DNA of 64,000 nt from Chloroflexota bacterium (GCA_037447295.1 JBBIGZ010000009.1:8400-72399); one strand, 5' to 3'. Counted from the first letter of the stretch, positions 392-50,223 are shown. A program made the numbers and translations. The notes: generated from the sequence alone by a model not told the origin.

Positions 392-454
392 GCACCGTCT
401 ACCATCCACGGCCTACCGTCCACGGTCCACGGTCTACCGTCCACCGTCTACAGT
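392..454 (+). repeat. tandem heptamer array A, 9 units of CYACSGT
   Basis: Units read gcaccgt ctaccat ccacggc ctaccgt ccacggt ccacggt ctaccgt ccaccgt ctacagt, all exactly 7 nt. There is an extra ccaccgt at 379-385. The array is intergenic, 53 nt upstream of the PHP gene ATG. Confidence 0.9.
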
Positions 455-473
455 CATATAAACAACTTGCAGG

Positions 474-482
474 TGATATAAT
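474..482 (+). promoter_or_regulatory. candidate extended -10 (TGaTATAAT)
   Basis: TGaTATAAT lies 25 nt upstream of the ATG at 507, just downstream of array A. There is no convincing -35. Confidence 0.35.
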
Positions 483-506
483 TTTGTCGTCCTTTTTGAA
501 CAGCCT

Positions 507-1202
507 ATGGGATACGCTGATCTCCACATTCACAGCAACTACAGCCTTGATGGCCTTCACAGTATCTCCCAAATTCTGCGCCACGCGGCACAGGTAGAAC
601 ACCTGCGTGTGATCGCCGTGACCGATCACGACGTACTGCGTGGCTCGCTAGAATGTGCCGAGCGTGCCCCGCATTTCGGTCTGCAAGCCATTCCGGGCAT
701 GGAAGTGACCACTGCCGATGGTCACCTGCTAGCCTACTTCATCCAGAAACCCATCCCACCCAATCGGCCCCTGCTGGAAACGCTGGGGAGGATCGGCGAA
801 CAGGGTGGACTGGCGATCCTGCCACACCCGATGCGTTTTTGGTCAACGCACCGCTGGACTGCATTACGGGAAGCCCTGAACCATCCTGAAGGTCGGGCCG
901 TGCTGGTAGGGATTGAAGTGGTGGATTCGTGGGGCGAGAATCGTCATGGGCTGCGACTGGCGGCTTGGTATGGCCTGGCCTGCTTGGGCAATAGCGATGC
1001 CCATATTCTGGAGGCGATTGGACGCATCTGCAGCTATTTCCCAGGTCAGGATGCCGAGGCATTGCGTCAGGCCTTGCTCCGCATCCAAACCCAGGCACGG
1101 GTCTTTGAGCCGATCCCCATCCATGAGGTGGCTCTACGGTACCAACGCACAAAGCAACGCATTAAACAGGATCCGCCCACTCAGCCGATGCTTGGCTCAT
1201 AG
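507..1202 (+). CDS. PHP-domain metal-dependent phosphoesterase
   Basis: 231 aa. N-terminal ADLHIHSNYSLDG and later VTDHD and NSDAH histidine/aspartate motifs are typical of PHP (polymerase/histidinol phosphatase) domains. Confidence 0.8.
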   Translation: MGYADLHIHSNYSLDGLHSISQILRHAAQVEHLRVIAVTDHDVLRGSLECAERAPHFGLQAIPGMEVTTADGHLLAYFIQKPIPPNRPLLETLGRIGEQGGLAILPHPMRFWSTHRWTALREALNHPEGRAVLVGIEVVDSWGENRHGLRLAAWYGLACLGNSDAHILEAIGRICSYFPGQDAEALRQALLRIQTQARVFEPIPIHEVALRYQRTKQRIKQDPPTQPMLGS

Positions 1203-1206
1203 ACCC

Positions 1207-3075
1207 ATGCAACCTTCCGAGCATTTGCAAACTCTATTGGCTGCTCTTCCCACCCGCCCCGGTTGCTATCTGATGAAGAACGCGGCCGGTGAGATCATTT
1301 ACGTGGGAAAAGCGGTCAACTTGCGCAACCGCGTACGCTCGTATTTCCACGCCGAAAGCGGCCAAACGCCGAAGACACGGCGCATGGTGCGCGAGATAGC
1401 CGATATCGAGTGGATCGTGGTCGAAAGCGAACTTGAGGCGCTGCTGCTGGAGATGAACCTGATCAAAAAGCACCGCCCCAAATACAACGTGCGCCTCAAG
1501 GATGACAAACGCTACCCGTATATCAAAGTGCACTGGGCCGATCCGTTCCCCAAAGTCACCGTAACGCGACAAATGATCAACGACGGTTCGCGCTATTTCG
1601 GACCTTATGCTTCGGCCTGGGCCGTACACCAAACCTTGGACGTGCTGCGACGCATTTTCCCCTATCTAACCTGTGATCGCCCAATTACAGGTCACGATCC
1701 CCGACCTTGCCTTTATTTTGACATCAAACTCTGTGCCGGCCCATGCATCGGTGCCATCGACCAGGCCGGTTACCGCCAGATGATCGCTGATCTGATGAAC
1801 TTCCTCAACGGACGCGGCGAGCAAATCTTGGAACGCCTGCAAAAGGAGATGGAACAAGCCGCGGAAGAACTGCGCTTTGAAAAAGCCGCTCGTTTGCGGG
1901 ATCAAATTCAGGCCATTCACGCTGTGATCGAAAAACAGAAAATCGCCTTCGGCCAGGAGATGGCCGATTCGGATATCCTGGCCATGGCGCGCAGCGATGG
2001 CGAAGCCTGTGTCCAGGTCTTCTTCATTCGCGGCGGAAAGCTCATCGGACGGGAATATTTCGTGCTCGAAAACACCGCCGAAAGTGAAGATGCCGAGATC
2101 GTGGCTCAGTTCCTTAAGCAATTCTATTCCGAGGCAGCCAATGTCCCTGAGCAGGTGATGCTGCCACAGGAGATTGAAGAGGCACAGATCATTTCTCAGT
2201 GGTTACGCTCGCGGCGAGGTGGCGAAAAGGTAGAGATCATGGTGCCGCGGCAGGGTCAGGCACAGGAGCTTTTACAGCTTGCGCTGGAAAATGCCCGTGA
2301 AACGCTGAACGTGCTGCGCGCCCGCTGGCAAGCGGATACACATCGCCAGGAAGAAGCGCTGGCCGAGCTACAGCAAGCCCTTTCCCTGCCGCGTCCGCCG
2401 AATCGCATTGAATGCTACGATATCTCGAATACGCAGGGGATGGCGATCGTCGGTGCGATGGTAGTTTTTGAGCAAGGGGTACCGAACAAAGCGCTCTATC
2501 GGCGATTCAATATCGAAAGCGTAAGCGGCCTGCCGGATGATTTCGCCTCGATGGAGGAAATGCTCACCCGACGCTTCCGCCGCTGGCAAGCAGCACAAGA
2601 GACGTCCTCCCAACCCGGTGCAAAAATAGACCACGCCTTCGCCGTCCTGCCTGATTTGATCGTGATCGATGGCGGAAAGGGGCAACTGGGGCGGGCCGTG
2701 CAAGTCTTGCAATCGTTTGGGCTTTATGGAAAAATCCCCTTGATCGCCTTGGCCAAACAGCAAGAGGAGATCTTTTTCCCGGAGCGGAGTGAGAGTCTGC
2801 TTTTGCCACGCACATCACCGGCGCTCTATCTTTTGCAACGCATCCGTGACGAAGCGCACCGCTTCGGCCTGACAGCCCATCGTCAACGGCGCACCAAACT
2901 CGGCCTGACATCGCAGTTGGAGAGTATCCCTGGCATCGGGCCGGCGCGTCGTAAAGCGCTCTTGCGCCATTTCGGCTCCATCGAAGCCATTCGCCGTGCC
3001 TCGGTGGAGGAACTGGCCGCCGTGCCGGGCATGACACGCACTGCGGCAGAGCAAGTCAAAGCGCATTTGGAATAG
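1207..3075 (+). CDS. uvrC: excinuclease ABC subunit C
   Basis: 622 aa from the ATG at 1207. GIY-YIG start (GCYLMKNAAGEIIYVGKAVNLRNRVRSYF), a UVR domain (ELRFEKAARLRDQIQAI) and a C-terminal (HhH)2 (IPGIGPARRKALLRHFGS). The track ORF from 913 is an upstream extension overlapping the PHP gene. Confidence 0.95.
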   Translation: MQPSEHLQTLLAALPTRPGCYLMKNAAGEIIYVGKAVNLRNRVRSYFHAESGQTPKTRRMVREIADIEWIVVESELEALLLEMNLIKKHRPKYNVRLKDDKRYPYIKVHWADPFPKVTVTRQMINDGSRYFGPYASAWAVHQTLDVLRRIFPYLTCDRPITGHDPRPCLYFDIKLCAGPCIGAIDQAGYRQMIADLMNFLNGRGEQILERLQKEMEQAAEELRFEKAARLRDQIQAIHAVIEKQKIAFGQEMADSDILAMARSDGEACVQVFFIRGGKLIGREYFVLENTAESEDAEIVAQFLKQFYSEAANVPEQVMLPQEIEEAQIISQWLRSRRGGEKVEIMVPRQGQAQELLQLALENARETLNVLRARWQADTHRQEEALAELQQALSLPRPPNRIECYDISNTQGMAIVGAMVVFEQGVPNKALYRRFNIESVSGLPDDFASMEEMLTRRFRRWQAAQETSSQPGAKIDHAFAVLPDLIVIDGGKGQLGRAVQVLQSFGLYGKIPLIALAKQQEEIFFPERSESLLLPRTSPALYLLQRIRDEAHRFGLTAHRQRRTKLGLTSQLESIPGIGPARRKALLRHFGSIEAIRRASVEELAAVPGMTRTAAEQVKAHLE

Positions 3076-3107
3076 ACGGTGGACCGTGGACGATAGATCG
3101 TGGAGCA
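3073..3107 (-). repeat. tandem heptamer array B, 5 units, inverted orientation
   Basis: Units read tagacgg tggaccg tggacga tagatcg tggagca, the reverse complement of CYACSGT-type units. The first unit contains the uvrC TAG stop. Confidence 0.85.
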
Positions 3108-3230
3108 TACATCCTTGCTTTAGCCCAGTCCCACCGCCCTCCTGCCTTCTGACCCGCCGATCGTAAACTGTGGAGGGTGAATCGTTGGCAAACCTCCTGC
3201 TCTGATCACCCAACGATTATCCTTTCCCGA

Positions 3231-3236
3231 TAGGAT
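3231..3236 (+). promoter_or_regulatory. candidate -10 (TAGGAT) in leaderless geometry
   Basis: TAGGAT, then 6 nt (gtcttg), then the ATG at 3243. There is no Shine-Dalgarno in the gap. Confidence 0.35.
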
Positions 3237-3242
3237 GTCTTG

Positions 3243-6282: not shown

Positions 6283-6390
6283 CAGAGAATTGCCCTCCTT
6301 CGCCTCAAGAACCGAGGCGCTGCGCCCAACTGCACCATTTTGCAGCAACGTGAGAACATGGGCAAGCCGATGCATTAGCGTGCTGAAACC

Positions 6391-6419
6391 TTGTCAGAAT
6401 CGGCGGGCATGGCTATAAT
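6391..6419 (+). promoter_or_regulatory. sigma-70-type promoter of tRNA-Pro
   Basis: TTGTCA (6391-6396), a 17-nt spacer, then TATAAT (6414-6419). The predicted TSS near 6426 is about 11 nt upstream of the tRNA 5' end. Confidence 0.6.
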
Positions 6420-6436
6420 GAGCATACCTTCGAGGA

Positions 6437-6511
6437 CGGGGCATGGCGCAGCCCGGCTAGCGCGCTTGCATGGGGTGCAAGAGGTCCTGGGTTCAAATCC
6501 CAGTGCCCCGA
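6437..6511 (+). tRNA. tRNA-Pro (anticodon GGG)
   Basis: Hand-folded cloverleaf. Acceptor CGGGGCA/TGCCCCG, D arm GCGC-AGCCCGGCTA-GCGC, anticodon arm CTTGC-ATGGGGT-GCAAG, variable loop AGGTC, T arm CTGGG-TTCAAAT-CCCAG, discriminator A. CCA is not encoded. Confidence 0.9.
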
Positions 6512-6519
6512 CAAGAGTC

Positions 6520-6543
6520 GCCGCCTCAGTGGCGGCTTTTTTA
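6520..6543 (+). terminator. intrinsic terminator after tRNA-Pro
   Basis: GCCGCC-tcagt-GGCGGC stem-loop followed by a run of six T. Confidence 0.7.
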
Positions 6544-6565
6544 TCTTTTGACCCATGGAGGTTCT

Positions 6566-6964
6566 ATGCAAGAAGAGATCATGTACGAGGGTGAGGAGTT
6601 GATTGAGATCGTAGAAGAAACCCGCGCCAGCCTTTCCTCGATCATCAGTCTGGTGGCAGGCATCCTTTCCATGGCCCCCTATTTCTTCATGGTGGCAGTG
6701 ATCCTAGGCATTGTGCGCAGCTGGTCCTACCCTCGTTCCTTCCTCTCATCCGAGCCCTTCCTCTACTACCTGCTCTTCAGCGGCATGCTCTTTGGCCTGA
6801 TCGGGGTGATCTACGGCACCCTGGCAGCGCGCAATGTATTTGTGGGCGAAGCCGGTGATAAGAGCGTGGTACTCCTGGCGATCGGTGTGGCCTTGAGCCT
6901 GCTGGGTGCGATTGCCAACATCCAATTCGCCTTGGGACTCTACATCAAGATCATGACCGGCTAA
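6566..6964 (+). CDS. small hypothetical membrane protein
   Basis: 132 aa from the ATG at 6566, with GGAG at 6557-6560. Three to four hydrophobic segments. The track start at 6470 would overlap the tRNA and its terminator. Confidence 0.6.
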   Translation: MQEEIMYEGEELIEIVEETRASLSSIISLVAGILSMAPYFFMVAVILGIVRSWSYPRSFLSSEPFLYYLLFSGMLFGLIGVIYGTLAARNVFVGEAGDKSVVLLAIGVALSLLGAIANIQFALGLYIKIMTG

Positions 6965-6990
6965 TACGGTCCCGTTGTATCTCTTTCGGA

Positions 6991-7037
6991 CGCTACAGAC
7001 CGATGGAAAACCCATCCGACTCTGTGGCGTTTTTTTT
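6991..7037 (+). terminator. intrinsic terminator
   Basis: CGCTACAG (6991-6998) pairs with CTGTGGCG (7022-7029), with an inner CGATGG/CCAT(C)CG extension, followed by eight T (7030-7037). Confidence 0.7.
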
Positions 7038-7042
7038 ATCCT

Positions 7043-7129
7043 CCACCGCCCATGGTCTACTGTTTATCACCGTCCACGGTCTACCGTCCACATCTACCAG
7101 TCCACCGTCTATGGCCCACGGTCTACACC
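7043..7129 (+). repeat. tandem heptamer array C, about 12 degenerate units
   Basis: Units read ccaccgc ccatggt ctactgt ... tcaccgt ccacggt ctaccgt ccacat ctaccag t ccaccgt ctatggc ccacggt ctacacc. The array is intergenic and ends 54 nt before the SCP2 gene ATG. Confidence 0.85.
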
Positions 7130-7141
7130 CCAGGCACGCGG

Positions 7142-7147
7142 TATAAT
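7142..7147 (+). promoter_or_regulatory. candidate -10 (TATAAT)
   Basis: TATAAT lies 12 nt after array C and 36 nt before the ATG at 7183, which has AGGAG at 7171-7175. Confidence 0.3.
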
Positions 7148-7182
7148 CCATTTGCCTTTTGATTCCACCCAGGAGCATCACA

Positions 7183-11107: not shown

Positions 11108-11134
11108 AAACATGCTCTTTGCAGGAGAAAAACG

Positions 11135-16085: not shown

Positions 16086-18182
16086 TCAAGCAGATTCAAG
16101 ATGTCTTGGCAAGGTGAAGAAAAAGGTAGCGCCGTGACCCGGCTCACTCTCTACACCGATCTTACCACCATGCGCCTGCACCGCCAGGCGGCAAAATGCC
16201 AACCCAATGCCCAACCCGCGCACACCTTCTTTACGAGCAAGTCGGGTAAATTTTTCAAAAATGCGCTCCTGATCCGCCGGTGCAATGCCTGGCCCGCTAT
16301 CCTTGACCCAAAAACGCACCTGTTGTGGTGTATCTTCTAGCAATTGGGCACCTAAGAGAATCTGGCTTTGGGTTGGAGAAAACTTGGAGGCATTTTCCAA
16401 AAGGTTGATCAAAACCCGTGCAATCATATCAGCATCCGCTAGTACCCATGCCGAGGCGACCTTGTCCTGTATCTGTATCTCGAGGGTTTGGGCACGCGGA
16501 TCCAGGGTCATGCGAATTTCATTGGCCGCCCTTTGGAGCAGATCTCCCACCCGCACCGGCTGGCGCTCTCCCAAAGGGACACCGGCTTCCAAACGGTGAA
16601 TATCCAGCAAAGAATTCACCATACGCTGCAGGCGCGCTACCGCGTGAGAAGCGATCTCCAGGATCGAAGTAGCCACGTTGTCATCGGTGGGGATCGCACC
16701 CTTCAAAAGTTCCAAACTGGAGATCAAATTTCCCAACGGAGAGCGTAGATCGTGATAGATCATTGCGGCCAGATCGTCCCGCAAAGCATCCAGCTCTTTG
16801 CGCTCATGGATATCATGGAATATCCACTGGATCACATCACGTTGTTCCAATATGCGGCGACGAGCGGACACTTCTACCGGTATTTGCCCCCCATCCTTGG
16901 TCTTCACCACAGATTCGAAGCGCAGCGTGTCTTCTTCGTCCAATGTATCCAGCGATTGAAGCGTGACCCCTTCAGGGACATGATAGAGCTGGTGGACGGA
17001 ACGAGAGAGTAGCTCCTGTGAATCGTAACCGAAGAGCTGCATCGCCTGGCGATTCGCTTCTAGAATATGCCCCTGCAAATCGGTCAGCAGGATGGCATCG
17101 ATATTCTCATCAAACAGCTCTCGATAGCGGCGTTGTGCCATCTGAATACGCTCGGCAAAAAGAGCGTTTTGGATGGCAATCCCTGCCAGACTGCCGATGC
17201 CGGTCATCACCAAAAGCGCATCCGAGTCAAACGTGCCTCCCAAGGGATTGAGCGCCATCAATACTCCGATCGCACCTTCCCGGCCATGGATCGGTACGAT
17301 CGCAGCAGAAAAGATGCTCCGATCATCGAAGAGACCCGCAACGGAAAGGCGCTCTTTGCTGCCGCTGCTGGGCAAGATCACCCCTTTTCCCTGACGCATG
17401 ACCCAACCGATAACACCCTCTTCAACTGCCAGACGACGATCGAGGAGCACTCCGGCGCGTAGGCCATCGGCTGCGCGAAACACCAGCGTGTTGCTCGTCT
17501 CATCCACCAAACCGAGCGCCACCGTTTCCACTTGCAGCGCCTGCATCATTTGTTGCAGAATGCGACGGAAGACGTCTTTCAAGTCCAGGGAAGCATTAAT
17601 CGCAATGGCACATTCGACCAATGCGCTCATCACCCGTGCCTGCCGCTGACTTTCGGTATAGAGGCGCGCGTTCAGCACGGCAATGCCTGCCTGATCGGCA
17701 ATGGCCTGCATCAGTTGGAGATGCTGTTCTGTAAAGGTGTTAGGGATCGGGTGCACCAGCGTCAAAACACCAACGAGCTTCTCGCGCGCCAGCAACGGCA
17801 CGCAGATGGCTGATTTGGCTCCCGTGCCGGCGCTGGAATCATCCGGGCGGCGCAGCCAGCGTTCATCACGGCTGGTATCCGGCACCAGCGCCGCCTTGCG
17901 ATGGCGGATCACCCAGCCGGCCAGCCCACGTTCTACCGTCTCCCGCAAACGGGGCGTGGTGTGCTCGTGATATTGTTTTCCATAGACTAGCGTCGCTTCT
18001 ACCGGTTTGCCGCTATCATCGAGCACGACAATGCTCCCGCGCTCTCCGCCCACGTGCTGCAATGCGGCATAGAGCACCCGCTGCAAAACGGTGCGCAGAT
18101 CCAGTGCCGCGGCCAGTTCACGGCTGATCTGATAGAGTAACTCTAGAGGGGCGATGGGCGAGGCGGGTACATCCATACTCAT
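16086..18182 (-). CDS. cytoplasmic sensor histidine kinase (GAF-GAF-PAS-HisKA-HATPase)
   Basis: 698 aa with no TM segments. H-box IYHDLRSPLGNL and ATPase G-boxes (KDSGPGI, GLGIGLAFCR). No response regulator gene in the window. Confidence 0.85.
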   Translation of the reverse strand: MSMDVPASPIAPLELLYQISRELAAALDLRTVLQRVLYAALQHVGGERGSIVVLDDSGKPVEATLVYGKQYHEHTTPRLRETVERGLAGWVIRHRKAALVPDTSRDERWLRRPDDSSAGTGAKSAICVPLLAREKLVGVLTLVHPIPNTFTEQHLQLMQAIADQAGIAVLNARLYTESQRQARVMSALVECAIAINASLDLKDVFRRILQQMMQALQVETVALGLVDETSNTLVFRAADGLRAGVLLDRRLAVEEGVIGWVMRQGKGVILPSSGSKERLSVAGLFDDRSIFSAAIVPIHGREGAIGVLMALNPLGGTFDSDALLVMTGIGSLAGIAIQNALFAERIQMAQRRYRELFDENIDAILLTDLQGHILEANRQAMQLFGYDSQELLSRSVHQLYHVPEGVTLQSLDTLDEEDTLRFESVVKTKDGGQIPVEVSARRRILEQRDVIQWIFHDIHERKELDALRDDLAAMIYHDLRSPLGNLISSLELLKGAIPTDDNVATSILEIASHAVARLQRMVNSLLDIHRLEAGVPLGERQPVRVGDLLQRAANEIRMTLDPRAQTLEIQIQDKVASAWVLADADMIARVLINLLENASKFSPTQSQILLGAQLLEDTPQQVRFWVKDSGPGIAPADQERIFEKFTRLARKEGVRGLGIGLAFCRLAVQAHGGKIGVESEPGHGATFFFTLPRHLESA

Positions 18183-26026: not shown

Positions 26027-26032
26027 ATTATA
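26027..26032 (-). promoter_or_regulatory. candidate -10 (TATAAT on the minus strand) for the 22725..26009 kinase gene
   Basis: The reverse complement of attata (26027-26032) is TATAAT, 17 nt upstream of the ATG at 26009. Array D lies just upstream. Confidence 0.3.
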
Positions 26033-26063: not shown

Positions 26064-26112
26064 GTAGAGATAGACCGTGGACCGTAGGTGGTGGACTGTG
26101 GACCGTAGGTTG
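26064..26112 (-). repeat. tandem heptamer array D, 7 units, minus orientation
   Basis: Units read gtagaga tagaccg tggaccg taggtgg tggactg tggaccg taggttg. It sits in the divergent region between the kinase gene (minus) and the Ser/Thr kinase gene (plus). Confidence 0.85.
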
Positions 26113-26195: not shown

Positions 26196-26204
26196 TGCTA
26201 TAAT
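26196..26204 (+). promoter_or_regulatory. extended -10 (TGcTATAAT) in leaderless geometry
   Basis: TGcTATAAT, then 6 nt (cgcact), then the ATG at 26211. The predicted TSS coincides with the A of the start codon. No Shine-Dalgarno. Confidence 0.5.
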
Positions 26205-26210
26205 CGCACT

Positions 26211-27909: not shown

Positions 27910-27992
27910 CTACGGTCTACCGTCTACAGTCTATGGTCCACCACGGTCTACTGTCTACGGTCTATGGTCCACCCCGGTCCACGGTCCATCTC
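27910..27992 (+). repeat. tandem heptamer array E, about 11 units
   Basis: Units read ctacggt ctaccgt ctacagt ctatggt ccaccacggt ctactgt ctacggt ctatggt ccaccccggt ccacggt ccatctc. It starts 3 nt after the rpe stop and includes two 10-nt variant units. Confidence 0.9.
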
Positions 27993-33971: not shown

Positions 33972-34739
33972 TCAATCGGTCAAAAGTACCGCTTCCGTCG
34001 AGGGCTTTTCCAGTTTCACCTTTTCCACCTCGAAGACCTCCTGAAAAGACTGCACGACCCTTTTCTTGACTTCCTCCATGGAGGGTGCACTCGGCAACAG
34101 ATCGGCCATGCTCACCACCGCATAATCGGCTAGCCCACAGGCAACGATGCCCTGCCAATACTCCATATCCGGAGCGACATTGAGAGCAAATCCGTGACGC
34201 GAAATGCCGTTGGCGTCCACTTTGACCCCAATCGCAGCGATCTTAGCCGGCTTCTGCCGGTCTTCCGGCCGACAACGCAGGCATCGTGACCAGACGTCGG
34301 CCTGCACCCAAACGCCGGTCAGACCGGGAATCTGTCCACCGACGATGCCGAAATGCGCCAGCGCCTGAATGAGCACCTTCTCAAGTCGGCGCACATAGCC
34401 GACATAATCAGCCTGTGGCAAACGTTGATGGGCATCTACCGTCCCCAGTGGCAACAAAGGGTATCCTACCAGCTGTCCAGGACCATGATAGGTCACATCC
34501 CCGCCGCGATCCACCCAGAAGATTTCCACGCCGCGACGGGCGCGTTCGGTCTCATCCCACAAGAGATGCTCATTCCGGCCGCGTCGACCAAACGTATAAA
34601 CGTGGGGATGTTCCAACAGCAGCAAGGTGGCAGGTATTTGTCCGTGGGCAATCTGAGTGGCGAGCTGCTCCTGCAACTCCCAAGCACGGCGGTACTCGAT
34701 CAGCCCCAAGTCAAGCACGCGCAGGAGAGGATAGGACAT
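33972..34739 (-). CDS. lipB: octanoyltransferase (lipoyl(octanoyl) transferase)
   Basis: 255 aa from MSYPLLRVLDLGLIEY. Contains RGGDVTYHGPGQLVGYP and AAIGVKV. The track start at 34832 runs through heptamer array F. Confidence 0.9.
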   Translation of the reverse strand: MSYPLLRVLDLGLIEYRRAWELQEQLATQIAHGQIPATLLLLEHPHVYTFGRRGRNEHLLWDETERARRGVEIFWVDRGGDVTYHGPGQLVGYPLLPLGTVDAHQRLPQADYVGYVRRLEKVLIQALAHFGIVGGQIPGLTGVWVQADVWSRCLRCRPEDRQKPAKIAAIGVKVDANGISRHGFALNVAPDMEYWQGIVACGLADYAVVSMADLLPSAPSMEEVKKRVVQSFQEVFEVEKVKLEKPSTEAVLLTD

Positions 34740-34745
34740 AGAAAA

Positions 34746-34751
34746 ATTATA
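34746..34751 (-). promoter_or_regulatory. candidate -10 (TATAAT, minus strand) in leaderless geometry for lipB
   Basis: The minus strand reads TATAAT-ttttct-ATG, with the ATG at 34739. No Shine-Dalgarno. Confidence 0.45.
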
Positions 34752-34780: not shown

Positions 34781-34815
34781 AGAGCCGTGGATCGTAGACC
34801 GTAGGCGATAGACTA
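34781..34815 (-). repeat. tandem heptamer array F, 5 units, minus orientation
   Basis: Units read agagccg tggatcg tagaccg taggcga tagacta. It lies 42 nt upstream of the lipB ATG, in the same orientation as lipB. Confidence 0.8.
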
Positions 34816-34876: not shown

Positions 34877-35293
34877 ATGGACATCGCCAATAACGTCTGG
34901 CATATCGCGCCCGTTCCCCCTGACTATATCGATCATCCCGCTCCTTTTCCAGAAGAAATTCCGTTTCGTCTGATCACACTGTATTCTTATCCCAACGATC
35001 TTGTGCTCGATCCGTTCGCCGGCTCCGACCAAACCCTAAAAGTGGCCCGCTGGCTGAATCGCCAGTATGTTGGATACGAGATCATCGAAAAATACGTGGA
35101 GTTATGCAGGCGGCGAATTAATGAACATCTCTCTCTGCGCCCTCAGCAGCTGGTGGCCGTTTTTGAAAAAATCGATCTCGAGGAACCGGTTATATCCAAA
35201 CGAAAGAAGTCCTTCGAAAAGCAAGAGCAAGAGAACAACGAACAGCTTTATCTCTTTGAACCGAAAGGAATATACAAAACTCCTAACCGCTGA
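34877..35293 (+). pseudogene. 5'-truncated N4/N6 DNA methyltransferase remnant
   Basis: 138 aa covering only the C-terminal half of a DNA methylase (HPAPFPEEIPFRLI ... VLDPFAGSDQTLKVA). There is no upstream DPPY/NPPY catalytic region. The SAM motif FxGxG reads F-A-G-S-D instead of the usual DPFxGSGTT. Local GC is about 40%, against about 58% in flanking genes. Confidence 0.6.
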
Positions 35294-39340: not shown

Positions 39341-39358
39341 CCTTTACCAGGAGTGAAG

Positions 39359-40441: not shown

Positions 40442-40447
40442 TCTCCG

Positions 40448-41389: not shown

Positions 41390-41490
41390 AAAGTTCTCGG
41401 TCGTCGCTTCCGCCTGCTGCAACTGCTTGCCCATCGTTTGCGACCGCAACATACGCTTGTTTTTCGCAATCGCCTGCCATGCGATCTTCT

Positions 41491-41525
41491 CCACGGTCCA
41501 TTGTCTACCATCCACGGTCCACCGA
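41491..41525 (+). repeat. tandem heptamer array G, 5 units
   Basis: Units read ccacggt ccattgt ctaccat ccacggt ccaccga. The array ends 45 nt before the ATG at 41570. Confidence 0.85.
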
Positions 41526-41544
41526 TCTCAGCCGGCAGGTTTCG

Positions 41545-41553
41545 TGTTAGAAT
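41545..41553 (+). promoter_or_regulatory. candidate extended -10 (TGtTAGAAT)
   Basis: TGtTAGAAT lies 17 nt before the ATG at 41570. AGGAG at 41560-41564. Confidence 0.4.
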
Positions 41554-41569
41554 TGAGATAGGAGTGCCT

Positions 41570-42160
41570 ATGAGCGAGATGGTTGAGGTCATTGTTGATA
41601 GCGTACGCGCCAGCCTGATGTCCCCTCAACGGATTGTCGTGCTGCGCGAGATCGGCGCGGAGCGCTATCTGCCGATCTGGGTCGGCCCCTATGAGGCAGA
41701 GGCCATCACAATCGCATTACAGGAACAGGAAGTGATCCGCCCCTTGACCCATGATCTGCTGAAAAACGTCTTCGGTGTGCTGAATGCGCGCATTAAGCGC
41801 GTCGAGATCGTCTCCTTGCGCAACGATATCTTTTACGGGAACATCGTGGCCGAGGTCAACGGTCGGGAGGTCAATATCGACTCTCGCCCTTCGGATGCCA
41901 TTGCCCTGGCCTTGCGCGCCAAAGTGCCGATCCTGGTCGCACTGACGGTGATGAACATGGCCAGCATCACCCCTGAAGAGGGAATGGAGCAACGCGCAAC
42001 GCCCCGGCCCTCCTCTCCTTCTCTTGAACCTCCCCCCCTAAAAGAGGGCGAGGAAGATCGCCTTTCCATCTTTGAAGACTTCCTGGAAAAGCTGGATAAG
42101 GGGGGAGAGGACGAGGAGAAGCCCGATGAGGAGGACCCGAATGCGCCTCAAAAAAAGTGA
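41570..42160 (+). CDS. bifunctional nuclease (BFN/DUF151) family protein with an acidic tail
   Basis: 196 aa. VVLREIGAERYLPIWVGPYEAEAITIALQ ... RPLTHDLL ... DSRPSDAIALALR is the DUF151 signature. The C-terminus is Glu/Asp-rich. Confidence 0.75.
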   Translation: MSEMVEVIVDSVRASLMSPQRIVVLREIGAERYLPIWVGPYEAEAITIALQEQEVIRPLTHDLLKNVFGVLNARIKRVEIVSLRNDIFYGNIVAEVNGREVNIDSRPSDAIALALRAKVPILVALTVMNMASITPEEGMEQRATPRPSSPSLEPPPLKEGEEDRLSIFEDFLEKLDKGGEDEEKPDEEDPNAPQKK

Positions 42161-42184
42161 ACGCTCCACGGGCCTTTCCTCAAC

Positions 42185-42230
42185 CATCCGCTAATGACTC
42201 CATCTCGCGCACATTAGCGGATGATTTTGT
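42185..42230 (+). terminator. probable intrinsic terminator
   Basis: CATCCGCTAATG (42185-96) and CATTAGCGGATG (42212-23) form a perfect 12-bp stem with a 15-nt loop, followed by ATTTTGT. Confidence 0.55.
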
Positions 42231-42233
42231 CGT

Positions 42234-42261
42234 TAGACAGTAGACGGTGGACGGTGGACAG
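42234..42261 (-). repeat. tandem heptamer array H, 4 units, inverted orientation
   Basis: Units read tagacag tagacgg tggacgg tggacag. The array lies 116 nt upstream of dnaB. Confidence 0.8.
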
Positions 42262-42286
42262 ACCCATCACCCGATCATCTGACTAG

Positions 42287-42350
42287 GCGACGAAGCGACC
42301 ACTCAACCATCCGACCACGCGACGAAGCGACTACTCGATTACCCAACTAC
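42287..42350 (+). repeat. diverged 32-nt tandem duplication upstream of dnaB
   Basis: gcgacgaagcgacCactc (42287-304) and gcgacgaagcgacTactc (42319-336). In addition, aacCatccgacca (42305-17) recurs as aacTatccgacca (42361-73). Confidence 0.75.
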
Positions 42351-42376
42351 ATGAGTGAGTAACTATCCGACCAAGC

Positions 42377-45699: not shown

Positions 45700-45778
45700 C
45701 CACATTCCACCGTCCACTGTCCACCGTCCACGGTCTACCGTCTACCTCCCACCCACCGTCCACGGTCCCTTCTACACA
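45700..45778 (+). repeat. tandem heptamer array I, about 10 units
   Basis: Units read ccacatt ccaccgt ccactgt ccaccgt ccacggt ctaccgt ctacctc ccacccaccgt ccacggt ... ctacaca. The array starts at the base after the TAG stop. Confidence 0.9.
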
Positions 45779-45795
45779 CCACCCCTTTCCTGAAG

Positions 45796-45801
45796 TAAAA
45801 T
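45796..45801 (+). promoter_or_regulatory. candidate -10 (TAAAAT) in leaderless geometry for pdp
   Basis: TAAAAT, then 6 nt (tcaacc), then the ATG at 45808. No Shine-Dalgarno. Confidence 0.4.
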
Positions 45802-45807
45802 TCAACC

Positions 45808-47127
45808 ATGCGAGCCGTTGATATTATCCTCAAAAAACGCGATGGGTTAGAACTGACGCGAGAGGAGATCGAGTTTTTCGTTCAAGGTTTCACCCGCGGC
45901 GAAATTCCGGATTACCAAGTGGCCGCTTGGGCCATGGCAGTCTTTCTGCGGGGTATGACCGAACGGGAAACCGCCGATCTGACCATGGCCATGGCGTTTT
46001 CCGGTCAGGTGCTCGATCTCAGCAACGTCGTGGGGATCGCCGTAGATAAACATTCTTCCGGCGGCGTGGGGGATAAGACCTCGCTGGTGGTCCTGCCCTG
46101 GGTAGCCGCTTGCGGGTTACCGGTTGGTAAAATGTCCGGGCGCGGGCTCGGCTTCAGCGGCGGGACGCTGGATAAGATGGAGTCCATTCCCGGCTACCGC
46201 GTCGACTTGAGCACTCAGGAATTCATCGAGCAACTGCGCAGGATCGGCATTGTGCTCACTGGTCAATCCCTCGATCTGGCCCCGGCAGATGGCAAGCTCT
46301 ATGCCTTGCGCGATGTCACCGCCACGGTGGATTCGATCCCGCTGATTGCCTCTTCGATCATGAGCAAAAAGATCGCCGCCGGCACCCAGGCAATCGTGCT
46401 GGACGTGAAATGCGGCAACGGCGCTTTCATGGAGACCCTTGAACGCGCCCGCGCCTTGGCGCGCCTGATGGTCGCCATCGGCAAACAGGTCGGTCGGTGC
46501 ACGGTAGCCATGCTCTCGGATATGAATCAACCCCTTGGTCATGCCGTCGGCAACGCGCTGGAGGTGCGCGAGGCCATCGATACCCTGCACGGCAAAGGCC
46601 CGAAGGATTTTTACGAACATTGCCATCACATCGCCGCCCATATGCTTGTGCTTGGAAGGAAGGCAAACAGCCTGGAAGAAGCACATCCCCTGCTTGATCA
46701 GGCCCTGCACTCTGGCGCCGCCTGGGAGATGTTTCGTAAGCTAGTACAAGCACAGGGTGGAGATGTGCGCTATGTGGATGAACCTCAGCGCCTGCCGCGT
46801 GCTCGCTGGATCGAACAGGTTCCGGCGCCGCGCAGTGGGTACCTATCTACCATCCATGCCCGCACCATCGGGGAAACGGCGGTGCTCCTCGGCGCCGGCC
46901 GCGCCCGCAAAGGCGATCCGATCGATCACGCCGTGGGATTTATCATCCCGCACAAAGTGGGAGACTGGGTAGAAGCAGGGGAGCCGCTCTTTGAAATCCA
47001 CGCCAATCGCCAGGAAGACCTGGAGCCGGCACGCCGCAGGTTGCAGGAAGCCTTTTCCTGGAGCGAAACGCCCGTCTCCCCTCTGCCACTCTTCTACGGG
47101 ATCGAGGACGAAAGTACCCTGGAGTAG
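45808..47127 (+). CDS. pdp: pyrimidine-nucleoside (thymidine) phosphorylase
   Basis: 439 aa. Contains KKRDG.ELT, DKHSSGGVGDKTSL and SGRGLGFSGGTLDK. Confidence 0.9.
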   Translation: MRAVDIILKKRDGLELTREEIEFFVQGFTRGEIPDYQVAAWAMAVFLRGMTERETADLTMAMAFSGQVLDLSNVVGIAVDKHSSGGVGDKTSLVVLPWVAACGLPVGKMSGRGLGFSGGTLDKMESIPGYRVDLSTQEFIEQLRRIGIVLTGQSLDLAPADGKLYALRDVTATVDSIPLIASSIMSKKIAAGTQAIVLDVKCGNGAFMETLERARALARLMVAIGKQVGRCTVAMLSDMNQPLGHAVGNALEVREAIDTLHGKGPKDFYEHCHHIAAHMLVLGRKANSLEEAHPLLDQALHSGAAWEMFRKLVQAQGGDVRYVDEPQRLPRARWIEQVPAPRSGYLSTIHARTIGETAVLLGAGRARKGDPIDHAVGFIIPHKVGDWVEAGEPLFEIHANRQEDLEPARRRLQEAFSWSETPVSPLPLFYGIEDESTLE

Positions 47128-47129
47128 GT

Positions 47130-48680
47130 ATGCTGGCGAGGGTCTATTCCTGTGCCGTGATCGGCCTGGATGGTGTGATCATCGAAGTGGAGGTGGACTA
47201 TACCGCCGGCATGGGTGGGGTCGTGATCGTCGGCCTGCCGGATGCTGCCGTTCAAGAAAGCCGCGAGCGTGTACAGACGGCCATCCGCAATGCTGGGCTA
47301 CCCTTCCCGCGACGGCGCGTGGTTGTCAACCTGGCCCCGGCCTCGGTCCGCAAGGAAGGCGCAGCCTACGATTTACCGATCGCGTTAGGAGTGCTCATCC
47401 TCACCGGGATCATACCGGCCTCTGCGATCGAGGAGACGCTGGTCGTGGGCGAACTTTCGCTGGACGGGTTGGTGCGCCACGTGCGCGGCGTGCTCCCCAT
47501 GGCGGCAGCGGCACGCGAACAGGGATTCCGGCGTATCCTCGTTCCCGAAGCCGATGCCGCCGAAGCGGCGCTGATCCCAGATTTGGAAGTGATCCCGGTC
47601 ACTTCCTTGGCGGCGCTGGTACAGCATCTCAACGGCACACATCCGATCCCTCCTTATCAGGCCTCACCCACGGAAGAAGAGCAACCGTTACTCTATACGC
47701 CGGTGGATTTTGCCGAAATCAAAGGACAGGAACACGCCAAACGCGCCCTCGAGGTGGCGGCTGCCGGCGGACATAACGTGCTCATGATCGGCAGCCCCGG
47801 CGCCGGCAAAACCCTGCTGGCGCGCGCCTTACCGGGCATCCTGCCACCCATGACGATCGAAGAAGCGCTGGAAGTGACCCGCATCTACTCGGTAGCCGAT
47901 CAGCTGCCCCCTGGCGTGCCGCTAATCCGCCAGCGCCCGTTCCGCGCGCCACATCATACGATCAGTCACGCTGGGCTGGTGGGAGGCGGCAATATTCCTG
48001 GACCGGGCGAAATCTCCTTGGCGCATCGCGGGGTGCTTTTCCTGGATGAGCTGCCGGAATTCGGCATGCGCGTGTTAGAAGTGTTGCGTCAACCAATGGA
48101 AGATAAAGTGGTCACTATCAGCCGCGCCCAAGGCTCCTTGACCTTCCACGCCAACTTTCAGCTGGTGGCGGCGATGAATCCGTGTCCCTGCGGTTACTAC
48201 GGCGATCCGCTCAAGGCCTGCACCTGCGCGCCGGCCGCGGTTACAAAGTATCAAAAGCGCATCTCCGGCCCCTTGCTGGATCGCATTGATATCCATGTTG
48301 AAGTGCCACGGGTGGATTATGACAAACTGGCGGCCGATCGGCTGGGCGAACCTTCGGCGGTGATTCGCGAGCGCGTGCAGCGCGCCCGCGAAATGCAACA
48401 GCGACGCTTTGCCCCGCTCAACGATGGCAGAGACTCGCCGATCCTCTCCAACGCGGATATGGGATTGAGCGAAGTGCGCCAATTCTGCCGCTTGACCGAG
48501 CAGGGGGAACAACTCATGCGGTTGGCCATGGTCCAGATGAACCTTTCTGCACGCGCCTATCATCGCCTGCTCAAAGTGGCGCGCACCATCGCCGATCTGG
48601 CCGGCAGCGAGCAAATTCAGCCCACCCATTTGGCAGAAGCACTACAATACCGCCCCAAGCCGGGATTGCTAAACGCCTAA
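47130..48680 (+). CDS. comM: YifB/ComM family Mg-chelatase-like AAA+ ATPase
   Basis: 516 aa. ChlI-type N-terminal domain, Walker [20 protein letters not shown], and a Zn-like [15 protein letters not shown]. Confidence 0.9.
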
Positions 48681-48790
48681 CCTTTGCATCTCATCTTGCA
48701 CAGTTATTCGGCCGGCAAGGTGAGAGCGAATCTTGTACTAATCATAGGCGCGTAATTCAGCTAGGGTTCTCTAAAGCGCAGGAGGCAACT

Positions 48791-50125
48791 ATGCAATTCC
48801 CTGATTCCCCTCTTTCTCTGTGGCTTGATACGTACGGTCCTTACACTCCGCAGTCCCCCTTACAGGGTGAGGTCAAAGTGGATGTGGTCATCATCGGCGG
48901 TGGCTTTACCGGGGTCATGACTGCCTATGAGCTAAAACGCGCTGAGCCCGCTCTGCGAATCGCCCTATTGGAAGCTCGAACCATCGGCTATGGTGCTAGC
49001 GGGCGCAACGGCTCATTCGCCATGACGGTAGTGGGCTTAGGCTTCGGCGTCATGCCAAAGATCATGGGGCGAGAACGTTTCAAAGCCGCACACCAGTATA
49101 TGGTGCGCGCCGTCGAAACACTGGATGAGCTGATCCAACGAGAAGGCCTGGAATGCGAGCGCATTCGGCCAGGATTCCTGCGCGTGGCCACCACCCAGGC
49201 CTATGTGCATCGCCTACAACATGACGTAGAAACGATGAACGCGCTGGGGTTTGATGATATTTACTGGATCAATCGGGAAGAAGTACAAGCACGGGCCAAC
49301 TCCTCACGTTATCTGGGTGCCTTGTGGGAGCCGCGGCTTCTGCTGGTGAATCCGGCCAAGCTAGTACGGGCAGAAAGAGAACTAATTTTGCGCCTAGGAG
49401 TTGAAGTCTATGAAAACACACCGGTTCTTGAAATCACTTCACGTCCCAGGTTTCAGCTCAAGACGCCCCAAGGCAAAGTGAGCAGTGAAAAACTAGTCTT
49501 TGCGACAAACGCCTATTCCCATCTCTTTCCTGAATTGCGTCGCAAGCAAATCCCAGCTTTCACTTACATGATCGCCACAGAACCACTGACCCAGGAACAG
49601 TTGGCACCCATCGGTTGGGCAAACCGCGAAGGCATCGAAGATGCTCGCAATCTGATCCACTACTACCGCTTAACACTCGACAATCGCCTAGTGATGGGGG
49701 GCGGGCCGGTGGGGCTCACCTTTGCCAATAACCTGAACGGGGATCGCAACCTCTCTGCATGGAAGCATCTGGAAGAACACATCCGCTTTTTGTTCCCTTC
49801 TCTGGCAGGAGTGCGCATTACTCACCGCTGGGGTGGTCCGTTCTCGGTTACCATGGACTTAACCCCAGCCATGGGCTATCTCGGCGACCGGCGCGCAGTC
49901 TACAGTCTGGGGTGCATTGGGCATGGCGTTTCTGCCAGTCACCTGAATGCTCAAACCATCCGAGACTTGATCCTGGAACGTCAAAGCGATTTGCTGGACT
50001 GCCCGTTTGTCAACCGGCGCGTCATCCCATGGCCGCCTGAACCTCTCCGCGTTGCCATAGCCTTTGCTTTACGCAGCTATCTGCAGGCTGAAGATTGGTT
50101 CTACGAAAGAGAGCTTGCCGCCTAA
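48791..50125 (+). CDS. FAD-dependent oxidoreductase (DAO family)
   Basis: 444 aa. Dinucleotide-binding motif [24 protein letters not shown] ribosome-binding site. Confidence 0.8.
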
Positions 50126-50167
50126 GCGCCCGAAAGAAGATCATCGCCCACAGCCACCGCCCGCGTC

Positions 50168-50223
50168 CCATGTTCCACGGTCCACCTTCCACGGTCTACG
50201 GTCCACGGTCCATCGTCCCTACG
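50168..50223 (+). repeat. tandem heptamer array J, 8 units
   Basis: Units read ccatgtt ccacggt ccacctt ccacggt ctacggt ccacggt ccatcgt ccctacg, all exactly 7 nt. The array ends 2 nt before a TTGACA -35 box. Confidence 0.9.

Follow-up and report, generated by a model that had tools for sequence, protein, structure and literature searches.

The STRR heptamers of heterocystous cyanobacteria, reportedly described by Mazel and co-workers in 1990, are built from the units CCCCAGT, TTGGTCA and CAACAGT. In the survey of long simple sequence repeats (SSRs) by Mrazek et al. 2007, according to the summaries in PMC4679880 and PMC4692102, heptanucleotides were the most abundant class, 7-nt indels separated strains, and polymerase slippage was proposed as the cause. 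According to later articles, TAACTGA direct repeats occur in Beggiatoaceae, cyanobacteria and some Bacteroidetes (MacGregor 2015, PMC4679880), GGGAATC and GGGGAYT are heptameric intergenic SSR repeats of Xanthomonas and Nostoc, respectively (Rehm et al. 2015, PMC4692102), and the ctxAB promoter of Vibrio cholerae carries TTTTGAT heptads whose copy number varies between strains (10.1101/2021.05.14.444153). REP/BIME sequences, which are also short abundant intergenic repeats, are imperfect palindromes of 20-40 nt, and their REP families are tagged by CTAC/GTAG and CGTC (PMC3733652). Ever since the 2007 survey it has been asked why bacteria prefer 7-nt tandem units, and there are hardly any functional data.

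We analysed a 64-kb stretch of DNA (the window) from a metagenome-assembled genome (MAG) of an uncultured member of the Anaerolineales (Chloroflexota), in which a preliminary description had placed ten arrays of a CYACSGT heptamer. All ten were present where it had placed them (Table 1). Dispersed, strain-variable intergenic heptanucleotide arrays are already a known kind (Mrazek et al. 2007, through PMC4679880 and PMC4692102; STRR; TAACTGA; GGGAATC), and the novelty is the CYACSGT unit and its Anaerolineales host, within the known class of bacterial heptanucleotide repeats. The arrays probably represent a lineage-specific, STRR-like heptanucleotide microsatellite family (long SSRs or variable-number tandem repeats, VNTRs) that is made and resized by slippage.

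Ten heptamer arrays in non-coding DNA

When the window was scanned with the two-unit pattern CYACSGTCYACSGT, allowing at most one mismatch, 34 matches were obtained where dinucleotide shuffles predicted 0.16 +/- 0.39, and 33 of the 34 fell within the ten arrays. The sole match outside them was a two-unit near-match within a histidine-kinase gene (17926-17939), and at this threshold the window held no array beyond the ten, a density of about one per 6 kb. Eight of the ten were reported by Tandem Repeats Finder, with a period of 7, 14 or 21 and, in addition, a higher-order repeat of 31 bp; rows for the two shortest, at 3073-3107 and at 41491-41525, were absent. Multi-unit duplications are indicated by such internal periods of 14, 21 and 31 bp. 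The period of exactly 7 that had been noticed in the cleanest arrays was confirmed, with nine units in 63 bp at 392-454 and eight units in 56 bp at 50168-50223. Heptanucleotide long SSRs or VNTRs are recognised by head-to-tail units of 5-11 nt in tracts longer than chance allows, and such tracts were found here.

Table 1. Coordinates of heptamer arrays and of the promoter and terminator-like features beside them in the window.
Feature	Position	Strand	Setting and basis
Array 1, 9 units, 63 bp	392..454	+	CYACSGT reads on +; 175-bp gap 5' of PHP-domain gene (507-1202), uvrC next; Tandem Repeats Finder, pattern scan
Extended -10 box TGATATAAT	474..482	+	22 nt after array 1, 24 nt before ATG 507
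Array 2, ~5 units	3073..3107	-	C-rich strand on -; first TAG is the stop codon of uvrC; G-rich in sense of both flanking genes; pattern scan
Intrinsic-terminator-like hairpin and T8 run, CCGATGGAAAACCCATCCG...GCGTTTTTTTT	6999..7037	+	Directly 5' of array 3; kept in relative; read from sequence, ends approximate
Array 3, ~12 units, 87 bp	7043..7129	+	Fills space from the terminator to the SCP2/aldehyde-ferredoxin-oxidoreductase operon promoter; Tandem Repeats Finder, pattern scan
TATAAT -10 box	7142..7147	+	12 nt after array 3; kept in relative L121
TATAAT -10 box	26027..26032	-	Minus-strand histidine-kinase gene with start codon at 26009; 31 nt separate box and array 4
Array 4, ~7 units, 49 bp	26064..26112	-	Divergent gap; C-rich strand coincides with the sense of the nearer gene, which is on minus
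Array 5, ~11 units, 83 bp	27910..27992	+	Starts 3 nt past stop codon of ribulose-phosphate-epimerase gene; includes a higher-order duplication of 31 bp as well as two 10-nt variants
TATAAT -10 box	34746..34751	-	6 nt upstream of lipoate-ligase ATG (34739, minus; leaderless-type); 29 nt to array 6
Array 6, 5 units	34781..34815	-	Divergent gap, faces minus-strand gene
Array 7, 5 units	41491..41525	+	5' of bifunctional-nuclease gene (41570-42160)
Extended -10 box TGTTAGAAT	41545..41553	+	22 nt after array 7; kept in L243, L245
Terminator-like hairpin CATCCGCTAATG...CATTAGCGGATG then ATTTTGT	42184..42229	+	Directly 5' of array 8; kept in L243 and L245; read from sequence, ends approximate
Array 8, 4 units	42234..42261	-	Between terminator-like hairpin and dnaB upstream region; G-rich in flanking genes' sense
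Array 9, ~11 units	45700..45778	+	From DnaC/DnaI-like gene stop codon to promoter of pyrimidine-nucleoside-phosphorylase gene; Tandem Repeats Finder, pattern scan
TAAAAT -10 box	45796..45801	+	17 nt after array 9, 6 nt before ATG 45808 (leaderless-type); kept in four lineages
Array 10, 8 units, 56 bp	50168..50223	+	Ends 2 nt before -35 box of mscL promoter
mscL promoter TTGACA-17-TACAAT	50226..50254	+	11/12 consensus positions; ATG at 50285

Genes were mapped by combining open reading frames (ORFs) and Pfam hits with the gene calls of near-identical contigs. The first 50.7 kb contained 21 gaps of at least 40 bp, 2874 bp in total (5.7%), and all ten arrays lay in these gaps, occupying 10 of the 16 that reach 100 bp or more. 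This bears out, for one window, the proposal of a dispersed tandem heptamer family confined to intergenic DNA. As a unit length of 7 is not divisible by 3, such arrays would survive only outside coding sequence, and the 64-kb window conformed to that restriction. Translation of the arrays yielded STVHGPRSTVY-type peptides, which accounts for the pseudo-ORFs of this type noticed earlier. Annotation pipelines should mask the arrays because they create spurious ORFs (STVHGPR-type) and break short-read assemblies.

Unit composition was determined over 40 clean 7-nt units. Position 3 was A in all 40, position 2 was either C (24) or T (16) and no other base, position 4 was C and position 6 was G in 35/40 each, and position 5 could be any base (C15, G17, A4, T4). 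Variation was concentrated at positions 2 and 5, with A3, C4 and G6 retained; this retention could reflect recognition by a protein or, equally, inheritance through unit duplication. CCACGGT (12), CCACCGT (6) and CTACCGT (4) were the commonest units, and the two 10-nt variants previously picked out within array 5, CCACCACGGT and CCACCCCGGT, were both found. The ACNGT core was not avoided elsewhere in the sequence (observed/expected 1.13), and single heptamers occurred outside the arrays only 2-8 times. The arrays had also been called partly self-complementary. The ACGGT and ACCGT cores are indeed reverse complements, but a structural consequence was undetectable, as RNA folding of the arrays relative to shuffles gave z-scores of -3.0 to +1.5 and no consistent or common structure. 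Rfam 15 at gathering score returned no array match (its sole hit in the window was a tRNA at 6437-6511), and full-text literature searches for the unit returned neither a description nor any mention of an Anaerolineales host, in agreement with the initial failure to recognise the unit as one already described.

Length variation at orthologous sites

The arrays recurred with the same flanks in at least five independent assemblies (Logan contigs of SRR11582170, SRR11582154 and SRR11582144; NCBI MAGs GCA_034431795.1 and GCA_037439505.1), and orthologous arrays were also found in other species. Their lengths differed. Array 4, 49 bp in the window, measured 63 bp (+14 bp, +2 units) in three assemblies that were 98-99% identical. 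Where the window has 87 bp at array 3, a 94% relative has 24 bp (-63 bp) and keeps both the flanking terminator and the TATAAT. Array 5 was 83 bp in the window as against 46 bp (about -37 bp) in a 93-94% relative, and array 6 had at least two extra units in a 93% relative. A difference of +7 bp was also seen in the 94% relative, besides those of -63 bp and about -37 bp. At the array 9 site the spacer between stop codon and -10 box was 96, 21 and 124 nt in three species, and the phosphorylase promoter was accompanied by 2 (L243/L244), 7 or 12 (L245) recognisable units in three species. Equal-length orthologous arrays carried substitutions at 3/35, 1/83 and 1/35 positions, similar to the genome average; array 2 was of equal length in the 94% relative, with 3 substitutions. 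Copy number differs at the same locus between strains or close species, as expected of long SSRs/VNTRs and as had been predicted for these intergenic sites. Orthologous arrays differ in length between relatives and therefore behave as variable-number tandem repeats.

These data show that the arrays are real, intergenic, length-variable at orthologous sites and persistent across species at the same sites. Under the microsatellite reading, slipped-strand mispairing or unequal exchange would add and remove units, often several per event; we infer slippage because the indels come in unit steps and higher-order periods are present. This reading draws as well on the ordinary rate of substitution within arrays, on their strictly non-coding position and on the lack of any signature specific to a function, and it agrees with published descriptions of heptanucleotide repeats (PMC4679880, PMC4692102). 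The arrays would take up the free DNA that follows the upstream gene's stop codon or terminator and precedes the next core promoter, and most of them may be near-neutral spacers whose influence on the adjoining promoter would not go beyond tuning or insulation.

The CYACSGT arrays occur in many phyla, and the general feature is period 7, not the unit sequence, as many different units are used. Across 774 kb of other Anaerolineae, tandem repeats most often had period 7, built from other units. Genomes of other phyla that bear the arrays had 63 unrelated heptamer arrays in the same 8-kb blocks, where periods 7, 14 and 21 dominated. On viral contigs the CYACSGT unit was about as frequent (8 loci) as permuted control units (4, 3 and 14).

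Where arrays on opposite strands lay within 200 bp of each other in other phyla, their order was (G-rich)n-spacer-(C-rich)n, by 30 vs 1 and 36 vs 0 in two counts. The 36 ordered pairs include five pairs of unrelated heptamers, and the G-rich array is 5' of the C-rich one on both strands.

Possible links to promoters, transcripts and mobile elements

In seven of the ten cases a -10 box follows the end of the array at 12-31 nt, and these seven arrays all have their C-rich strand as the promoter sense strand, a small count (7/7) that was noticed post hoc. Between 40 and 51 kb there were four promoter-like hits, of which two abut arrays. The same promoters keep adjoining arrays although the upstream neighbour differs: the mscL promoter does so with or without the DAO gene and also with a MITE-like insertion, and the phosphorylase promoter does so in an 86%-identical relative with a different upstream gene and drifted units. 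The spacing and polarity, the persistence beside these promoters and the retention of A3, C4 and G6 within units count against the microsatellite reading. A promoter-related role of the arrays is unproven. A phase-variable contingency locus (SSR switch), in which the repeat sits within a reading frame or separates the -35 and -10 boxes and unit changes turn expression on or off, was rejected as a class for the arrays. They were located 5' of the -10 box, and either 5' of the -35 position or at it, never between the hexamers or in coding sequence.

One form that a promoter-related role could take is cis-regulatory, in which a regulator or nucleoid-associated protein would recognise the C-N-A-C-N-G-T unit and occupy the array just 5' of the core promoter, with occupancy set by unit number. 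The ctxAB TTTTGAT heptads of V. cholerae and the heptamers reported to affect the recO and recF promoters of Nostoc are models for such a platform, and in Nostoc heptamer repeats have modest promoter effects of 1.5-2.9-fold (10.1101/2022.06.06.494920). The spacing and uniform polarity of the seven arrays, the abutting promoter-like hits, the retention of arrays at the phosphorylase and mscL promoters across species despite upstream changes, and the conserved A3, C4 and G6 with their degenerate-palindrome core, ACNGT, all point this way. However, one promoter is unchanged with anything from 2 to 12 units, the arrays at 3073 and 42234 are opposite in polarity and lie beside terminators, far from promoters, and the array at 27910 is without a recognisable downstream promoter. 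Moreover, on crude gene calls, the CYACSGT arrays of other phyla also occupy convergent gaps (21 clusters) and have no orientation bias towards genes, and similar gaps in other genomes are filled by unrelated heptamers. A binding platform of this kind is a tentative reading that we consider rather unlikely.

Less expected still would be that the arrays, instead of being passive slippage products, are the trace left by a period-7-specific, directional process, or by heptamer-array-binding machinery, common to several phyla. It is suggested by arrays being held immediately 5' of core promoters with fixed strand polarity in this Anaerolineales lineage, by their persistence at promoters while units turn over, and by the placing of the G-rich array 5' of the C-rich one in inverted pairs (36/36 in one count).

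It is improbable, too, that the arrays act as RNA. Rut sites, which are recognised by Rho, are unstructured RNA with C>G, and an unstructured, C-rich (CYACSGU)n 3' tail could serve as a Rho loading (rut) site at which read-through would be stopped ahead of the next promoter. Judged from their sequence, the arrays are candidates, being apparently unstructured and C-rich (C>G) in the upstream gene's sense in 6/8 co-directional gaps, and several begin at, or no more than 3 nt from, the upstream stop codon. The C excess is modest, however, with CCACGGT accounting for 12/40 to about half of units; the array at 42234 is G-rich in the RNA sense, and an array in a divergent gap, as two of them are, cannot form a 3' tail. 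A rut site would be redundant at 7043 and 42234 because intrinsic-terminator-like hairpins directly precede these arrays. Heptamer arrays are also abundant in cyanobacteria, which are not known to possess Rho. In other lineages a post-transcriptional regulator might act on the tract in the 5' UTR, which has been proposed for TAACTGA repeats. Some C-rich arrays of other phyla stop 2-20 nt short of a Shine-Dalgarno sequence or ATG (L056, L062, L015 and L008), a likeness to TAACTGA repeats (PMC4679880). The window arrays, however, are outside the 5' UTRs of the mapped promoters because they are located upstream, not downstream, of the -10 boxes. Assignment of the window arrays to a TAACTGA-type 5'-UTR set, whose repeats stand in forward orientation a few nt 5' of the start codon, was likewise rejected, as the -10 box separates array from start codon at seven sites.

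An origin from a mobile foldback (MITE-like) element seems very doubtful; heptamer arrays would be its terminal inverted repeats and would survive as its ends or remnants, the single arrays of the window being half-elements or decayed copies. The fixed order of the inverted pairs in other phyla would suit such an element, as would spacers that often extend the palindrome (by up to 22 bp) and a palindromic core of ~130 bp common to three Chitinophagales/Saprospiraceae loci. The window, however, is without any inverted pair, the spacers of most pairs are unrelated in sequence and some are only 1-10 bp, orthologous sites differ by unit steps rather than by presence or absence of a whole element, and neither target-site duplications nor transposase association was seen. 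Finally, an origin as artefacts of short-read metagenome assembly deserves practically no credence: assemblers do break at these repeats, and several array-bearing contigs of the genome scan have an end within an array (e.g., L032, L039, L080 and L084), but the same arrays with their flanks are present in separate assemblies (three Logan runs and two NCBI MAGs), and orthologous arrays are present in other species.

If the arrays are only neutral microsatellites, the finding is an ordinary one. The window is nevertheless a well-resolved case from a little-studied phylum, with traceable orthologues and clear flanking terminators and promoters as well as dense arrays. It offers a convenient system for slippage rates and for the effect of unit number or orientation on neighbouring promoters, and the arrays could be strain-typing markers for these Anaerolineales.

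Comparison with described repeat families

Like REP/BIME sequences, the arrays are abundant short intergenic repeats, and the CYACSGT unit contains CTAC (the reverse complement of GTAG) and CGTC. Identity with REP/BIME was rejected, since the arrays are tandem heptamers that fold no better than shuffles (z -3.0 to +1.5). The ctxAB TTTTGAT heptads share with the window arrays a tandem 7-bp unit directly 5' of a core promoter and a copy number that varies between strains. They differ in being a single AT-rich locus with known binding proteins and a measured expression effect.

Further likenesses are described in PMC4679880 and PMC4692102. TAACTGA repeats are also intergenic, scattered over phyla and subject to 7-nt-step indels, and are often mixed with other heptamers; their sets are short, at 2-6 copies, and mostly sit in the 5' UTR with the start codon only a few nt further on (PMC4679880), whereas the window arrays have 4-12 units and lie upstream of -10 boxes. 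GGGAATC and GGGGAYT repeats likewise vary extensively in length and sequence at the same intergenic sites between close organisms, and occasionally form inverted pairs; they are rich in G tracts and can form G-quadruplexes (PMC4692102), whereas CYACSGT is without G tracts. As summarised in the same articles, the long SSRs of Mrazek et al. 2007 resemble the window arrays in having 5-11-nt units beyond expectation in strain-variable intergenic tracts, and that survey predates the genomes of the window's lineage.

The arrays had been likened to STRR sequences in architecture but not in unit, and both halves of that comparison stand. The main units CCACGGT, CCACCGT and CTACCGT are not CCCCAGT, TTGGTCA or CAACAGT, the host belongs to the Chloroflexota and is not a cyanobacterium (best protein matches are to Anaerolineales/Chloroflexota MAGs), and, unlike STRR, the window arrays mix units with mutually reverse-complementary cores (ACGGT and ACCGT). 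The minor unit CTACAGT is one base apart from STRR3 (CAACAGT), and as in STRR, tandem 7-nt units are present in many dispersed, non-coding copies, with one unit family dominating a lineage.

Unit, location and length variation of the arrays

All ten tandem heptamer arrays reported in the preliminary description were confirmed at their positions. Searching for two adjacent units with no more than one mismatch gave 34 matches in the 64-kb window against 0.16 expected from dinucleotide shuffles, and the single match outside the arrays (17926-17939) falls within a histidine-kinase gene. Tandem Repeats Finder (TRF) detected eight of the ten arrays, with a basic period of 7 plus higher-order periods (14, 21 and 31 bp) and matches of 66-100%, and returned no row for two of the shortest, 3073-3107 and 41491-41525. 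A3 never varies across the 40 clean units; position 2 is restricted to C or T, position 5 accepts any base, and C4 and G6 are each retained in 35. The unit, first described as CYACSGT, is therefore better written C-Y-A-C-N-G-T, and is a degenerate-palindrome core (ACNGT) with a strand-asymmetric CY spacer.

The gene map of the window was built from ORFs, Pfam hits and the genes called on contigs that are near-identical or related to it. In the first 50.7 kb it leaves 21 gaps of at least 40 bp, totaling 2874 bp or 5.7% of that sequence. The proposed confinement to intergenic DNA was borne out, as all ten arrays lie in gaps, where they occupy 10 of the 16 that reach 100 bp; both convergent gaps of this region lack arrays. 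Past 50.7 kb the window's genes are densely packed and arrays are absent. Several reading frames run open through the arrays and yield the STVHGPR-type pseudo-peptides already attributed to them, and in one relative a 56-aa ORF is annotated across array 41491. The window is chromosomal DNA from an uncultured member of the Anaerolineales (Chloroflexota); its PEP carboxykinase, ribulose-phosphate epimerase and pyrimidine-nucleoside phosphorylase have 97-100% matches in Anaerolineales MAGs. The mechanical ORF 6470-6964 begins inside a tRNA gene (6437-6511; Rfam, 59.5 bits), and the genuine gene at this place probably starts near 6569. GC skew is negative over 1-58 kb irrespective of gene strand and positive from about 60 kb, and G+C falls to 0.48 in 62-64 kb; this change (58000-64000) could mark a replication-related switch in skew or a segment of foreign origin.

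Logan assemblies of three runs contain the same arrays and flanks, as do two NCBI MAGs with 98-99.96% identity to the window, which answers the earlier concern over an assembly artefact, and other species also carry arrays at orthologous sites. Unit number, proposed for comparison between strains, differs between relatives at orthologous arrays. Array 7043 is shortened in the 94% relative GCA_034432895.1, yet the terminator hairpin on its 5' side and the TATAAT on its 3' side are intact there. In the gap upstream of the phosphorylase gene, the spacer between the preceding stop codon and the -10 box measures 96 nt in the window; GCA_034432895.1 has 21 nt there, with two units, and GCA_037478835.1 and GCA_034432875.1 have 124 nt, with 12 units. 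At the phosphorylase promoter of an 86%-identical relative, where the upstream gene is different, the arrays are formed by the drifted units CTGCCGT and CCGCCGT. Equal-length arrays diverge by substitution about as much as the genome does on average. Taken together, these comparisons show the arrays behaving as microsatellites that are long-lived and variable in length. We consider that they are probably slippage-driven heptanucleotide microsatellites confined to non-coding DNA.

Coordinates of arrays, short-spaced promoters and inverted repeats (window positions unless a retrieved locus, L-number, is given)
Feature	Location	Length or sequence	Strand	Comparison
Array	392-454
Array	3073-3107	35 bp		equal length, three substitutions in GCA_034432895.1
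Array	7043-7129	87 bp		24 bp in GCA_034432895.1
Array	26064-26112	49 bp		63 bp (two more units) in three assemblies, 98-99% identical
Array	27910-27992	83 bp		46 bp in GCA_034432895.1
Array	34781-34815	35 bp		at least two units longer in GCA_034432895.1
Array	41491-41525
Array	42234-42261	28 bp		one more unit in GCA_034432895.1
Array	45700-45778
Array	50168-50223
Short-spaced promoter	26196-26213	TGCTATAAT-6-ATG
Short-spaced promoter	34737-34751	TATAAT-6-ATG	minus
Short-spaced promoter	45796-45810	TAAAAT-6-ATG
Inverted pair	L008:3911-4078
Inverted pair	L010:5579-5664
Inverted pair	L044:5257-5419
Inverted pair	L037:4109-4280
Conserved palindromic core	within L099:44-216
Conserved palindromic core	within L103:2-229
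Conserved palindromic core	within L114:5935-6110

The region around dnaB also holds other repeats. Between array 42234 and the dnaB start, the window carries direct repeats of 8, 16 and 32 bp (GCGACGAAGCGACCAC...; 42276-42336), which are kept in one related locus (L243); the locus of GCA_037478835.1 (L245) has CCGACCA/CCGACTA-type octamer repeats instead. In L245 a short hairpin, CCCAGGGCTTCAGCCTGGG, is inserted mid-array upstream of dnaB (6385-6410).

Promoters and other functional readings

At seven arrays a -10-like hexamer lies 12-31 nt downstream of the array end; four are exact TATAAT and the others are TAGAAT, TAAAAT, and TACAAT paired with a consensus TTGACA. The C-rich array strand is the sense strand of the adjoining promoter in all seven cases, and terminator-like hairpins stand directly 5' of arrays 7043 and 42234. 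At the mscL promoter, the array is directly upstream of the -35 box in three species, where its upstream neighbor is a DAO gene, a Mg-chelatase-like gene, or a 273-bp element with 33-nt inverted ends. A sequence-specific role upstream of promoters is the reading that this placement brings to mind, and we regard it as unlikely. Against a required role, one promoter tolerates anything from 2 to 12 units, two arrays of opposite polarity are distant from promoters, and no recognizable promoter follows array 27910.

The surroundings of the mscL array vary. The DAO-family oxidoreductase gene just upstream of it in the window (48791-50125) is absent from that place in L243 and L245, where a Mg-chelatase-like gene is followed by mscL, a case of gene gain or loss beside an array. 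The insertion of the 273-bp element (L245:12883-13155; ends ATAGGACACGGATGAAC.../...TATCCGTGTCCTAT) is immediately 5' of the mscL array, and the element's left-end sequence resembles that of an AT-rich insertion of about 430 bp adjoining the histidine-kinase array in another relative (L205:8460-8890).

Several array-adjoining promoters are of the leaderless type, the -10 box standing 6 nt before the ATG. This spacing is seen at three promoters of the window, which suggests that leaderless mRNAs may be common in this organism. The arrays were rejected as a source of -35 hexamers, since the hexamer 16-18 bp before the -10 box is close to TTGACA only at 45773 (TACACA), and the good -35 at 50226 is outside array 50168-50223.

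ACGGT and ACCGT are complementary, as was pointed out earlier, but no structural consequence was detected: folding of the ten arrays gave z-scores of -3.0 to +1.5 and no common fold, and RNA or DNA hairpins were rejected. Rfam gave no match at the window arrays or on 12 array-bearing loci. A role at the RNA level, such as Rho loading, appears improbable.

Restriction-modification site clusters and a Chi-like recombination signal can both be set aside. Outside the arrays ACNGT is not avoided (observed/expected 1.13, the top value among 16 such palindromes). GACGGTGG is similar to Chi of E. coli (GCTGGTGG), but the heptamers have just 2-8 occurrences outside the arrays, without strand skew or over-representation. 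GGNCC (observed/expected 0.62), GANTC (0.70) and TCNGA (0.72) are under-represented in the whole window and may be restriction-modification targets. A truncated ORF for an N6/N4 DNA methylase (34877-35293) is shared by the window and one relative (L209), and a 45-aa ORF takes its place in two others (L205 and L206).

Distribution and inverted pairs beyond the window

A scan for four exact units, with one genome per species, retrieved at least 119 blocks. Among the matches listed, these come from Bacteroidota (Saprospiraceae, Lewinellaceae, Chitinophagales), Gemmatimonadota, Acidobacteriota, Chloroflexota, Planctomycetota and others, many genomes yielded several blocks, and most arrays in these blocks are pure CYACCGT. 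Unrelated heptamers form another 63 arrays in the same 8-kb blocks, whose tandem-repeat output is dominated by periods 7, 14 and 21. Among about 80 other Anaerolineae lineages (774 kb), picked by a protein and not by repeats, the commonest tandem period is 7, with other units, and the CYACSGT family is limited to two weak arrays. In viral contigs the family pattern occurs at 8 loci, against 4, 3 and 14 for three composition-matched permutations. These data argue that the general feature is the period of 7 and not the CYACSGT sequence.

Three broader proposals were rejected. The unit is present in many phyla, but that it is unusually widespread finds no support in viral contigs, where composition-matched permuted units reach a similar frequency. 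A super-family Y-N-A-C-N-G-W, embracing the unit, TAACTGA, CAACTGA and the cyanobacterial STRR3 (CAACAGT), is enriched only about 2-fold among co-occurring heptamer arrays (7/67 and 3/27, about 5% expected). By crude ORF-based gene calls, arrays across phyla show no orientation bias: they lie in co-directional gaps as well as in divergent (20) and convergent (21) ones.

In other phyla, opposite-strand arrays less than 200 bp apart follow one order on either strand: G-rich units, a spacer, then C-rich units. Across loci L001-L119 and L203, the G-rich-first order was found 30 times against 1 in the pattern scan and 36 against 0 in the TRF-based scan, where five pairs are unrelated heptamers. The spacer, of 1-190 bp, often extends the palindrome, up to 22 bp. 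Pair order and palindromic spacers could reflect either a foldback element or some directional process. A palindromic core of about 130 bp, TTGCACA..TTTCAGCAC..GTGCTGAAA..TGTGCAA, is conserved at three Chitinophagales/Saprospiraceae loci, where inverted CYACCGT arrays flank it; it has no Rfam match and is possibly a MITE-like foldback element. No inverted array pairs were found in the window.

Comparison with known heptamer families

Several distinct heptamer arrays stand side by side in single intergenic regions of six loci (L020, L038, L072 and L075, all from the Chloroflexia MAG JBAURA01, and L002 and L065), including CAACTGA, GGGATTA, GAAACGC, CGTAATT, GATACTT and ATGCAAC. In cyanobacteria, strain-variable dispersed intergenic heptamers are known as STRR, and Microcystis has a mixture of several heptamers, which these regions resemble.

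Dispersed intergenic heptamers that vary between strains have been described as TAACTGA in Beggiatoaceae and some Bacteroidetes (PMC4679880), as GGGAATC and GGGGAYT in Xanthomonas and Nostoc (PMC4692102), and in Geobacter (PMC2700814); in Nostoc, heptamer repeats are reported to have modest promoter effects (10.1101/2022.06.06.494920). As summarized in PMC4679880 and PMC4692102, Mrazek (2007) found heptanucleotides to be the most abundant class of long SSR and proposed polymerase slippage as the cause. A full-text search for the present unit strings gave no match in any searchable text, consistent with the preliminary description, which did not recognize the unit as a described repeat family, and a search for STRR unit strings gave chance matches only. 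Strain-variable dispersed intergenic heptamers are therefore an already documented kind of repeat, to which the CYACSGT unit is a new addition.
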